DNA from: a virus | Taxonomy: Duplodnaviria; Caudoviricetes | Reading direction: 5' to 3' (one strand) | IMG/VR virus record: IMGVR_UViG_3300021958_000035 | Coordinates: 1-64,000 of that record | DNA length: 64,000 bases | Part shown: one piece after another, positions 7,280 through 21,192 of the stretch | Position numbering within the stretch: position 1 is the first letter of the stretch | How the letters are laid out: every line of letters begins with the position of its first letter | The notes under the pieces: model-generated | What the model was told of the DNA's origin: nothing | Database searches by the model: none | Seen by the model: the letters and a program-made list of their open reading frames with translations, nothing else | Position numbers and translations under genes: made by a program

Positions 7280-7357
7280 GACTGGGAATAGTGTATAATG
7301 GAGTGGGAACGTGGATATTGTTAGGAGTCGCGTATCTTGCTCTTGGGAGCTATTTCC

Positions 7358-7741
7358 ATGTTTAAGCCTTGTAAAGCCTTTTTGTTTTTGTTAATGTCTT
7401 TTGCTGCCGGATTGATTTCTGTCTATGACAACGTACTGAGCGTAGTTTTCATGGAAACCTTGCCAGTAAATGAACAAAATCCTATGGCATCTAAAATCAT
7501 AGACCATATTGGTGTTGTGGGTTTGGTTTATATCAAAGCGGTCACAACTATTCTGGCTGTTTTGCTGATGTGTGTTTTAAGTTTCACAAAGTATAGGGTT
7601 GTGATAATACCAGTATTCATCTTTCAGTCCTTACTCTTTTATTATCTAACCTTTTACACACCTTCAGGAAGTTTTTGTGGAGAGACCGATTATTTTGCAC
7701 CACCTCTGGAATTGTTTTGGAGATTTTACACAGAAAATTAA
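7358..7741 (+). CDS. DUF5658-like membrane protein
   Basis: three hydrophobic helices with D...E.NP motif (YDNVLS...NEQNPMA). Confidence 0.6.
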   Translation: MFKPCKAFLFLLMSFAAGLISVYDNVLSVVFMETLPVNEQNPMASKIIDHIGVVGLVYIKAVTTILAVLLMCVLSFTKYRVVIIPVFIFQSLLFYYLTFYTPSGSFCGETDYFAPPLELFWRFYTEN

Positions 7742-18539: not shown

Positions 18540-19095
18540 GTTTGACCATAGGGACGTAAATACTTTCAAAAAAGATATCAAGTTCTGCACAATGCTGGAA
18601 AAGCATTTCTTTCACCAGTGGCTAGAGATTGCAAAGGCCCGCGACCCTAAACTTTCATGGGAGAATAATGGTTGTGGTAATGACGGTGAGTTCATCGCCA
18701 AGGGCAATACCTCTGGTGCTGATTACAAGGTCAACGAAGTTCCATTAGAAATTAAATGGGTTCCTACCGCTGGTAAGTTTACCCTGAAAGAGAATGATTT
18801 AAAAGCGTACATTCGTGAGAGTGCAGACATTTTGTTCATCTATAACACAGGAAGTGCAAACCTTAGAAAACCTAAAGACTATGACCTTGACCGTCACATT
18901 GAATTGATTGAGGATAACGCATCAGACATTGGTTGGGGTATCATGCAATCATCCGATGTTAAAAGATTATACGATGACGCTAAAGAAAACAACCTGTTCA
19001 AGCCGATACCTTACATGGGTAACAAATCGGGCGTTGTGTTGAAGTCAAAAGACTTTCATAAATATTTCGTGGAGAGAGAGTGGACAACAAAGTAG
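18526..19095 (+). CDS. putative PD-(D/E)xK nuclease-fold protein
   Basis: E...ADY...LEIKW pattern. Confidence 0.55.
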   Translation: MMSRRFDHRDVNTFKKDIKFCTMLEKHFFHQWLEIAKARDPKLSWENNGCGNDGEFIAKGNTSGADYKVNEVPLEIKWVPTAGKFTLKENDLKAYIRESADILFIYNTGSANLRKPKDYDLDRHIELIEDNASDIGWGIMQSSDVKRLYDDAKENNLFKPIPYMGNKSGVVLKSKDFHKYFVEREWTTK

Positions 19096-19154
19096 AACTA
19101 TTAGGTTATTATGGAGACGACACTACCAATACTTTTCGGAATAGGGGAAACTAA
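19080..19154 (+). pseudogene. 5' stub of a second thyX
   Basis: VDNKVELLGYYGDD matches ThyX N-terminus ENKVELLGFYGDD at 10737. Confidence 0.75.
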
Positions 19155-19510
19155 TGTATGAATATCGTGCTAGAGTCAAACGGGTTGTGGACGGAGATAC
19201 TGTAGATTTTGTGGTGGATCTTGGCTTTAAGGTGCATATGGTTATACGAACCAGACTACTCGGAGTAGACACACCTGAGCGTGGCCACCCAGCTTGGGCT
19301 AAAGCTAAAGATATGTGTCAAGATTTATTATATAAATCAGCAGGTATACATAACCCAGTCCTGCACCCATACCATCGGCATGGGTTTCCAGTCGAAACTG
19401 AGGTAATAATCAGGACAAGTAAAACAGGAAAATATGGTCGTTGGTTGGTGGAGATCGATGGTGTTACAGATGAACTTGCCAAAATTTGGCCTTATGGAGA
19501 GAAGAAATGA
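19154..19510 (+). CDS. thermonuclease (SNase) family protein
   Basis: RVVDGDT, RLLGVDTPE, GKYGRWL. Confidence 0.88.
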   Translation: MYEYRARVKRVVDGDTVDFVVDLGFKVHMVIRTRLLGVDTPERGHPAWAKAKDMCQDLLYKSAGIHNPVLHPYHRHGFPVETEVIIRTSKTGKYGRWLVEIDGVTDELAKIWPYGEKK

Positions 19511-19616
19511 GTCACATTCTTTACAAGTCAGACACTTTGCCTCAGTTGACAGATGCAGATGATCGACTTAAAACATTAAATAAATATTACAAATTGTTGG
19601 ATTAGGGTGTATAATA

Positions 19617-20021
19617 ATGAAAGTATATGTTATCGTTTCGATTGCGGCAGAGGGTAAAGTTGTCACTGACTTTTCAGTAGAACCAGTTGGTGTATGCTCA
19701 ACACTTGAAAAAGCATTGGAATATGTAAATGAATTAGAAGCAAATACACATCAAGATCCCAAAGTGTCTAGCGAAATAGCTTATGACGTATTTGAGTTTG
19801 AGCTTGATGAAGAACCTCTAACGCTAAGTTTTCTTAAAAAAGAGATGCAGGCATTTCAGAATGAGGTACAAGACGATATTTTAGAATTAATGAAAACAGG
19901 ATATGTAGACCAGTTAATTGGAGAGGACGGTAACTTTTATTATACATTGACAGATATGGGCAAGGATGAAATGAAAACCATGTCTGAGCAAATAAAGAAG
20001 TTCTTTCGCAAGAAAGACTAA
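19617..20021 (+). CDS. hypothetical protein
   Basis: acidic ORF with C-terminal winged-helix-like YYTLT..G. Confidence 0.7.
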   Translation: MKVYVIVSIAAEGKVVTDFSVEPVGVCSTLEKALEYVNELEANTHQDPKVSSEIAYDVFEFELDEEPLTLSFLKKEMQAFQNEVQDDILELMKTGYVDQLIGEDGNFYYTLTDMGKDEMKTMSEQIKKFFRKKD

Positions 20022-20257
20022 ACATGTAGACGTTGTTATTGAAACAACGCAGGACGCGAGTTCGACTCTCGCCGCCTCCAATTACCAAACCAAGGGGGCG
20101 TAATGGTATCGACTGGTTGCGTAGGTAATTACTGCATGTCGAGGTTGGTCAGTTGGCCTCGTAAAAAGCTGACTAAAATTTAATTGCAGAACCTTGTTTT
20201 GCTTTGGCGGCGTAAGCTGTCTGGGGTCTTGCCAGTACCTTATTATCCAAACTGGCT
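20022..20257 (+). ncRNA. ssrA: circularly permuted (two-piece) tmRNA; tag reading frame AEPCFALAA*
   Basis: T arm + CGCCTCCA (20073-80) precedes GGGGGCG (20094-100) with G3-U70 pair; pk1 GAGG/CCTC + TTGGTCAGTT/AGCTGACTAA; tag ORF 20186-20215. Confidence 0.9.
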
Positions 20258-20262
20258 TTTAC

Positions 20263-20334
20263 AAGCGGTAATGTTCCAAGGTGGCGACAAGGATTCCAAA
20301 TCCTCGTGGCTAGGTTCGATTCCTAGACCGCTTA
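20263..20334 (+). tRNA. tRNA-Trp(CCA)
   Basis: AAGCGGT/ACCGCTT acceptor, AGGA-TTCCAAA-TCCT, CTAGG-TTCGATT-CCTAG; weak D arm. Confidence 0.8.
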
Positions 20335-20352
20335 CTTTTTTTGGAGGTTACT

Positions 20353-20886
20353 ATGTCAGAGAAACTTATACTGTCTTATTTAATGCAAGAGAATCGACCT
20401 GATGATTGGGATAATATGTTCTTCGCTACTGCAACTTTGTGGTCGCGTAAGAGTCATGATTCCGAAACTCAGTGCGGTTGCGTATTAGTAAAGAATAAGA
20501 CAATTATAGCAACAGGTTATAACGGTTTTATTAGAGGTGTAAACGACTTCATGCTTCCTGACACAAGACCTGCTAAGTATCCTTTTATGATTCACGCAGA
20601 GGCTAACGCTATTTATAATGCTGCCCGTGAAGGTCAAAGCACAATGGGTGCAAGAGCTTATATTACAGCAATCCCATGTCGAGAATGTCTACAGATGTTA
20701 TGGCAGTGCGGAATCCACGAAATCTACTACACCAACATCTCTTCACCAAAGTCGTGCATGTGGAGCGATGGTTACAATGAAATACTAGAGCAGATTGAAG
20801 ATAGGATTGAGTTTAAGTTTTTTCCTAAGAATTACCTATGTAATTATCCACTTATTGAATCCGCAGAAAAGTTTGAAAATTTATGA
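20353..20886 (+). CDS. dCMP deaminase
   Basis: TGYNG, HAEANA, PC..C motifs. Confidence 0.9.
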   Translation: MSEKLILSYLMQENRPDDWDNMFFATATLWSRKSHDSETQCGCVLVKNKTIIATGYNGFIRGVNDFMLPDTRPAKYPFMIHAEANAIYNAAREGQSTMGARAYITAIPCRECLQMLWQCGIHEIYYTNISSPKSCMWSDGYNEILEQIEDRIEFKFFPKNYLCNYPLIESAEKFENL

Positions 20887-20893
20887 AAAACAC

Positions 20894-20922
20894 TTGACAA
20901 ATCGCGGTTTGTAGACTATAAT
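20894..20922 (+). promoter_or_regulatory. class B promoter (ssb operon)
   Basis: TTGACA-17-TATAAT with GTAGACTATAAT. Confidence 0.85.
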
Positions 20923-20973
20923 ATAGTAAACCGAAACAAAGCCAATTTAAACATTTTACAGGAGTGGATAGAA

Positions 20974-21192
20974 ATGCCGAGTATGGCGGAAATGGTAGAA
21001 GCACACCTTTTAAATGTGCAACGTGAAATCCAAACCCTTGAGGAAAGGAAGGTTGTAATCGACACAGAAATTGATAAGCTGAAAAATTATCTGGCAGAAG
21101 GTCAGGTTACTTTAAGACAAGTAAACAACACACAAAAAAAACAGGATGCACCCGCATCCACAGTATCTAGTCCCAGTTTAGGAGGATCTTAA
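20974..21192 (+). CDS. small coiled-coil protein
   Basis: AGGAG RBS, heptad pattern. Confidence 0.7.
   Translation: MPSMAEMVEAHLLNVQREIQTLEERKVVIDTEIDKLKNYLAEGQVTLRQVNNTQKKQDAPASTVSSPSLGGS

Follow-up and report, generated by a model that had tools for sequence, protein, structure and literature searches.

A permuted two-piece tmRNA gene on a probable Planctomycetota phage and its virus-only family

Judging from sequence, the 64,000-nt stretch of DNA analysed here (the window; positions 1 to 64,000 of IMG/VR record IMGVR_UViG_3300021958_000035) very probably carries a functional phage ssrA gene in permuted order, which would specify a two-piece tmRNA and represent a clade of its own, restricted to viruses, among the known permuted tmRNAs. 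Circularly permuted RNA genes have a textbook example in two-piece tmRNA, for which three bacterial origins are assumed. The gene is of a kind already known; what is new is the clade, which fits none of the three described lineages and, when its IMG/VR relatives are compared with the matching bacterial genomes, is found on viral contigs only. The clade is characterized by failure on the lineage-specific models, by being the permuted form closest to standard tmRNA, by the lack of an encoded CCA end and of a promoter, and by a setting within tRNA arrays.

Results

Detection of the gene by tmRNA models

ARAGORN reports a permuted gene ('tmRNA*') with the tag AEPCFALAA*, together with a tRNA-Trp at 20263-20335, and the Rfam model of permuted tmRNA (RF04321) matches 20022-20215 with 83.8 bits against a cut-off of 47 (E = 1.4e-14). 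This match spans the entire model (positions 1-213), the acceptor piece preceding the coding piece. Applying the model of standard tmRNA (RF00023, cut-off 47) resulted in two swapped half-matches of 33 and 31.4 bits, which are not collinear. Upon inspection of the sequence, every element named in the original prediction was found where that prediction had placed it. The tRNA-like domain has a 7-bp acceptor stem, a T-arm with a TTCGA-type loop and a discriminator A; pk1 precedes the tag frame, which has a resume codon, a hydrophobic xLAA end and a stop codon; and the terminal pseudoknot of permuted tmRNA, a GGGG/CCUU stem with an A/C-rich loop 3, is present at 20223-20256.

The lineage-specific models behaved differently, and all three stayed below threshold. 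The betaproteobacterial model (RF01850) scored best among them, with 67.5 bits over a full-length alignment against a cut-off of 84, but its 3' hairpin was left unaligned, and the traits of its consensus (an encoded CCA, a promoter of its own and a terminal hairpin) are missing from the locus. The alphaproteobacterial model (RF01849) gave 42.3 bits against a cut-off of 50 over model positions 40-278, and the cyanobacterial model (RF01851) 43.5 bits against 70, with the tRNA-like domain alone being aligned. Consequently, the placement in the known class rests on RF04321 and on the terminal pseudoknot common to its members. One relative (L176) just passes the alphaproteobacterial model at 52.1 bits and scores best there, so that lineage-specific models cannot classify the family. 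Likewise, ARAGORN misses the tmRNA in three of the 13 related genes on which it was run (L174, L175 and L207, with resume codons GGC or GTC), although it is evident from the alignment, and automated annotation thus undercounts the clade. In practical terms, this is a family that escapes the lineage-specific Rfam models.

Organization of the locus

The features of the locus, all on the + strand, are as follows, with the basis of assignment in brackets.

19617-20021, +, upstream protein gene of 134 aa, function unassigned (ORF list; weak DUF4364 match at most)
20002-20017, +, 5' hairpin TCTTTC-GCAA-GAAAGA, probable 5' end of the acceptor piece (relatives, MFE fold)
20022-20080, +, core of the acceptor piece (RF04321 alignment, covariation)
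20022-20029, 20035-20038, 20045-20048 and 20050-20052, +, helix-2 strands of the acceptor piece (RF04321 alignment); ACATGTAG at 20022 pairs with CTGCATGT at 20132
20056-20072, +, T-arm GCGAG-TTCGACT-CTCGC
20073-20079, +, 3' acceptor strand CGCCTCC, with discriminator A20080
20081-20093, +, 13-nt intervening segment ATTACCAAACCAA (family comparison)
20094-20262, +, coding piece (ARAGORN, Rfam, family alignment)
20094-20100, +, 5' acceptor strand GGGGGCG, giving the G3-U70 pair
20113-20139, +, helix-2 strands of the coding piece
20140-20173, +, pk1, with stem 1 CGAGG/CCTCG and stem 2 GTCAG/CTGAC (family complementarity)
20186-20215, +, tag frame GCA GAA CCT TGT TTT GCT TTG GCG GCG TAA, encoding (A)AEPCFALAA* (ARAGORN)
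20223-20256, +, terminal H-type pseudoknot, with stems GGGGT/ACCTT and GCCAGT/ACTGGC and loop 3 ATTATCCAA (covariation)
20263-20335, +, probable tRNA-Trp (CCA) without an encoded CCA end, 6 nt past the pseudoknot (ARAGORN)
20353-20886, +, downstream dCMP deaminase gene (PHROG 174, E = 4.9e-35)

G20096 pairs with T20077, which constitutes the G3-U70 alanine identity pair. By inspection, no CCA is encoded at the end of the acceptor piece, where ATT directly follows CTCCA. The minimum free energy fold recovers the 5' hairpin, the outer part of helix 2, the T-arm and the acceptor stem (z = -2.2). A signal scan of the region revealed no promoter that stands out at the tmRNA locus, in agreement with the earlier view that the gene lacks a dedicated one, and the region 19000-21000 contains no terminator-like site, so none lies between the tmRNA and the dCMP deaminase gene. 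A promoter-like site at 19586-19615 was set aside, as the number of such sites in the region is that expected from shuffled sequence and the transcription start would fall past the ATG of the upstream ORF. The ortholog of this ORF in the closest relative (L048) is of equal length, without indels, and the differences between the two are distributed over the codon positions as 21/8/25, so that the ORF is regarded as a real gene; the 5' hairpin of the acceptor piece is formed by its last six codons (FFRKKD*).

The probable tRNA-Trp reaches 18.2 bits on the Rfam tRNA model against a cut-off of 29. Its minimum free energy fold is not a cloverleaf; the acceptor stem and T-arm are canonical, and the D-arm and anticodon stem are weak. 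As a separate observation, the spacer (xTTACCAAACxAx after CTCCA, 20081-20093) resembles the pseudoknot segment CCTT-ATTACCCAAAC (20238-20252), a resemblance that may be fortuitous or may point to a recognition element common to both or to a remnant of the permutation.

Structure and tag in related viral contigs

Searching IMG/VR with a generic permuted signature and then with two family-specific patterns returned 16 related viral contigs. The full proposed structure was encoded on a MAFFT alignment of 14 distinct family sequences, in which 87.8% of the cells are paired, compared with 36-48% after displacing the 3' partners by 1-3 columns. Twenty pairs are changed on both sides, against 13.3 ± 2.0 in shuffled alignments, and none of the 500 shuffles reached 20. 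Helix 2 (P2) is 98-100% paired and the acceptor stem and T-arm fully so (100%), two T-arm pairs having changed on both sides; the two stems of the terminal pseudoknot, at 100% and 97%, show compensatory changes. G3-U70 does not vary, all 14 sequences having U-G there (alignment columns 80-106). Four sequence types of pk1 stem 1 occur (CGAGG/CCTCG, GCTGG/CCAGC, GAGAG/CTCTC and CGTAG/CTACG), all of them complementary, and the same holds for the four types of stem 2; the low covariation count of stem 1 is caused by a one-column shift of its 3' strand in the MAFFT alignment. In combination with the detectors, the covariation bears out a compact permuted phage tmRNA with two pseudoknots, as had been predicted, and as far as sequence can tell the locus is a real RNA gene under selection.

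The tag frame is also kept across the family. The closest relative, which is 92.7% identical, has AEPCLALAA, and further relatives carry ADESLALAA, ANESLALAA, ANASFAMAA, VEENFALAA, VEKNFALAA, AEENFALVA and GVENYAMAA, the C-terminus always being ALAA, AMAA or ALVA. Within the last four tag codons and the stop the changes are synonymous (GCT/GCA, TTG/CTG/ATG, GCG/GCC/GCA and TAA/TAG). The proline and cysteine in AEPCFALAA are unusual among tmRNA tags.

A small stable hairpin occupies the 5' hairpin position in every member, unrelated in sequence and often with a UUCG or GNRA loop. The spacer keeps its 13 nt and a CCAAAC core in 15 of the 16 relatives and is 20 nt long in L174. CCA is encoded neither in any family member nor in the four tRNAs of the window phage. 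In many relatives the 5' hairpin begins directly at the end of an upstream tRNA (Thr, Val, Glu or Gln), and in several members a tRNA (Ile or Asp; Trp in the window) begins 4-6 nt past the terminal pseudoknot; the 3' flank of the remaining members holds a hairpin plus a T run or the ribosome-binding site of the next gene, and no tRNA follows the tmRNA of L048. The original suggestion that tRNA processing supplies the RNA ends is consistent with the family, in which tRNAs often abut both ends, but its specific form is not supported as a general one, since the tRNA-Trp is absent from L048. Matches to the manA RNA motif (RF01745) were also recorded near tmRNA and tRNA clusters, at L048:1452-1629 (-) with 59.5 bits and at L024:2452-2659 (+) with 100.2 bits.

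The phage and its host

The record, a linear viral contig of 95,216 bp from IMG/VR, has an estimated completeness of 57% and all its genes on one strand. It encodes a ribonucleotide reductase, DnaB, a split DnaE, the dCMP deaminase, SSB and an endonuclease. The host is probably a member of the Planctomycetota, as had been supposed, on the basis of DUF1501 genes: the window has two, all five related records tested have between one and four, and the best named homologs in a search of 5.8 billion proteins are without exception from Planctomycetota (52-56% identity; Pirellulales, Lacipirellula and Planctomycetales), closer matches being metagenomic contigs. DUF1501 homologs at E <= 1e-20 are present in 180 of 301 sampled Planctomycetota genomes.

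No smpB was found on the 95-kb contig, as expected from the original prediction, or in five related records. The record of L205 (G160) is a complete relative of 166,833 bp that carries a tmRNA of this family and three DUF1501 genes and lacks smpB; it likely gives the full size of the phage group.

Standard tmRNA was detected in 55 of 61 sampled Planctomycetota genomes and the permuted form in none of 151; in the tmRNA database the phylum is represented by 1,914 standard genes and one permuted gene. The acceptor motif of the family matches 30 bacterial genomes, none of which has a permuted gene. Recent capture from a host ssrA was considered and rejected, as the family bears no special likeness to the tmRNAs of those genomes with the best DUF1501 matches; together with the 30 motif-matching genomes, this indicates that the gene was not recently taken from a sampled host. 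Planctomycetota tags, e.g. ADENLALAA, ANNNYALAA and ANNQFAMVA, end like those of the phages, which fits the use of host proteases.

Comparison with phage-borne and bacterial tmRNAs

Two-piece tmRNA has been described in the OM43 phage Melnitz (Buchholz et al. 2022, PMC9004378), and 53 unique two-piece forms, 50 of them marine or aquatic, were counted among 18,146 phage genomes (PMC9004378). The generic permuted signature matches at least 120 IMG/VR contigs, with spacers of 3-33 nt, many of 5-8 nt, among the matches listed. Thus neither the phage-encoded nature of the gene nor its compact spacer is new: the novelty originally attached to a phage-borne permuted tmRNA is lost, and the spacer described as very compact is nothing special, given that 3-8 nt are common in other phage genes. 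Among the matches listed (L003-L122 and L191-L202), most phage permuted tmRNAs score best on the betaproteobacterial model, with 88-185 bits. Canonical beta-type genes on viral contigs reach 269-299 bits on that model (RF01850), and it follows that the phage forms are far more diverse than the bacterial beta lineage. Other permuted viral genes comprise a short-spacer clade of cyanobacterial type (113-148 bits) and a few of weakly alphaproteobacterial type. No BLAST match, either for the locus or for the tmRNA alone, was obtained in 50,697 reference phages.

The ssrA genes published for Melnitz, pelagimyophages and cyanophages (PMC9004378) share with the window a permuted order and a large lytic-type phage genome without smpB; these genes are likewise set among tRNA and nucleotide-metabolism genes, and in Melnitz, too, the phage gene is of a type unlike that of the host. 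However, the likely host phylum in the present case has one-piece tmRNA rather than another two-piece type, the window gene has no promoter of its own, and no glutamine riboswitch was detected here at the Rfam gathering threshold.

The betaproteobacterial two-piece tmRNA (Sharkady and Williams 2004, as cited in PMC9004378 and PMC11915505; RF01850) resembles the window gene in gene order, pk1, a tag ending in FALAA or FAMAA and a terminal pseudoknot with near-identical loop 3. It differs in the spacer, which is 25-45 nt long and able to pair whereas that of the window has 13 nt and is unstructured, and in its encoded CCA, promoter and terminator hairpin, all lacking in the window, where pk1 is larger and helix 2 retains the standard CAUGUAGAC motif. 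Genes of cyanobacterial type (RF01851) on cyanophage-like contigs are similar with respect to tRNA arrays, a very short spacer (5-8 nt) and the terminal pseudoknot, but have the lowest sequence identity to the window of all groups. Conversely, the standard one-piece tmRNAs (RF00023) of Planctomycetota and Spirochaetota show the highest identity in the tRNA-like domain, pk1 and tag, and share the GCAUGUAGAC(GUU) motif and similar tags, yet the window gene is permuted in order, has two pseudoknots instead of four, and ends in a pseudoknot unlike their pk2. CATGTAG and GTAGAC, both parts of CAUGUAGAC, are found in 14 and 5 of 39 standard genes, respectively, and in none of 99 other permuted genes. 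The family is nearer to the standards, among them E. coli, than to any group of permuted genes, and this applies to the acceptor piece, the 5' strand and the region of pk1 plus tag alike.

The terminal pseudoknot behaves in the opposite manner. It consists of a GGGG/CCUU stem, an A/C-rich loop and a variable second stem, also seen in L191, L041 and L013. With the loop AUYACCCAAA it is part of the betaproteobacterial and cyanobacterial Rfam consensus, and the alphaproteobacterial consensus has the same architecture; a 15-mer of it is identical to one phage beta-type gene, and the motif occurs in 36 of the 99 other permuted genes but in none of the 39 standard tmRNAs sampled from Planctomycetota and Spirochaetota. 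Its use as a marker of the beta lineage was rejected, as it is found also in cyanobacterial- and alphaproteobacterial-type genes. A mosaic of a host-like acceptor piece and a phage-like coding piece was likewise rejected, because every module except the terminal pseudoknot is closer to the standards.

Discussion

Origin of the permuted order

The most economical reading is that the family represents a branch of its own within the two-piece class, one that evolves slowly. The original prediction had instead raised an independent permutation, in which a standard one-piece tmRNA of Planctomycetota- or Spirochaetota-like type was rearranged, for example by tandem duplication and loss. In favour of that proposal, all three lineage models fail. 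In a tree of genes un-permuted computationally, with 22 Planctomycetota, 17 Spirochaetota and E. coli as Rfam-selected standards, the family forms a 100/100 clade on the side of standard tmRNA, apart from 98 other permuted genes; E. coli is the sole standard in this set from outside those two phyla. This tree replaced a first version, which was dropped as biased because its standards had been picked by a family-derived motif. The same direction is indicated by the closeness of acceptor piece, 5' strand and pk1 plus tag to the standards, by the parts of CAUGUAGAC that other permuted genes lack, by the acceptor motif, which matches Planctomycetota and Spirochaetota genomes only, and by the one-piece tmRNA of the likely host phylum. 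Still, a tree uniting all permuted genes in one clade was not rejected by an approximately unbiased (AU) test (p = 0.246), known two-piece genes are broken at the same points, and the nearness to the standards reaches as far as E. coli, as expected of slow evolution, without being greater for the tmRNAs of genomes with the best DUF1501 matches. As the terminal pseudoknot is common to the known two-piece lineages and present in none of the 39 standards, an independent permutation is considered unlikely, and a fourth two-piece origin, beside those of Alphaproteobacteria, Betaproteobacteria and Cyanobacteria, correspondingly doubtful. A broader formulation, that the clade is either such a fourth origin or the least-derived extant branch of one two-piece radiation carried by phages, is put forward with similar reserve; the single radiation is suggested by the presence of the terminal pseudoknot in the betaproteobacterial and cyanobacterial lineages, in the architecture of the alphaproteobacterial one and in most phage genes, and its absence from the 39 standards.

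A separate permuted tmRNA at L114:1215-1490 (-), with 94 bits on RF04321 and 53 bits on the alphaproteobacterial model, adjoins the standards, and not the other permuted genes, in both trees. It lies within a tRNA array, and a Twister-P5 ribozyme match was recorded at 7310-7367 of the same locus.

Proposed maturation and function

In the proposed mechanism, a + strand co-transcript would span the upstream ORF, the tmRNA, the tRNA-Trp and the dCMP deaminase gene, the tmRNA having neither promoter nor terminator of its own. RNase P would cut 5' of G20094 and, by cutting 5' of the tRNA-Trp, release the 3' end of the coding piece, whereas a 3' endonuclease or trimming after A20080 would remove the 13-nt spacer; the segment 20081-20093, flanked by the 3' processing site of the acceptor piece and the RNase P site, is presumably cut out. 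The processing of permuted transcripts by tRNA-processing enzymes has been described (PMC11915505). The coding piece may acquire its 3' end by a different route, given that the tRNA-Trp scores poorly and is absent from L048. The host CCA-adding enzyme would complete the CCA end, and the acceptor stem and helix 2 would keep the acceptor piece (about 20002-20080) joined to the coding piece (20094 to about 20262). Following charging by the host AlaRS via G3-U70, host SmpB and EF-Tu would deliver the RNA to stalled ribosomes, translation would resume at GCA 20186, AEPCFALAA would be added and synthesis would stop at TAA, the ALAA end directing the peptide to host proteases. Extra ribosome-rescue capacity during infection is the likely gain for the phage.

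An RNA that merely occupies the host system would be compatible with a phage that has no smpB. Such a decoy would titrate host SmpB or block host trans-translation without tagging any protein, and phage inhibitors of tmRNA that consist of the tRNA-like domain only have been described, namely the TLD-only RNA proposed as an inhibitor in mycobacteriophage DS6A (PMC4131195, PMC11915505). However, pk1, the resume codon, a nine-codon frame ending in ALAA or AMAA and its in-frame stop are kept with synonymous changes, none of which a decoy needs, and it is considered very improbable. The source being an incomplete, metagenome-derived viral contig, the permuted order could in principle stem from misassembly, or the locus could be a functionless fragment of a captured host gene. 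Against this, 17 contigs (the record and 16 others, from different samples) have the same arrangement, including the order, the 13-nt spacer and compensatory evolution, and this form is found in no bacterial genome examined; the chance of an artefact of either sort is accordingly taken to be minute. The functional two-piece tmRNA remains the favoured reading.

Implications

The permuted form is widespread on phages, well beyond the hosts that use it themselves. Within it, the present clade is the one nearest to standard tmRNA in sequence, which helps to work out how the permutation happened, and it provides a natural example of how tRNA-processing sites can supply some of the ends of an RNA, and in certain relatives all four. 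Since the terminal pseudoknot is common to all two-piece lineages and occurs in none of the 39 standards, the independent origin of the three bacterial lineages is put in question. If a single phage-borne radiation were true, these three 'independent' lineages would be linked by phage-mediated transfer, and Planctomycetota phages would be using a foreign gene form that must work with the SmpB of their host.
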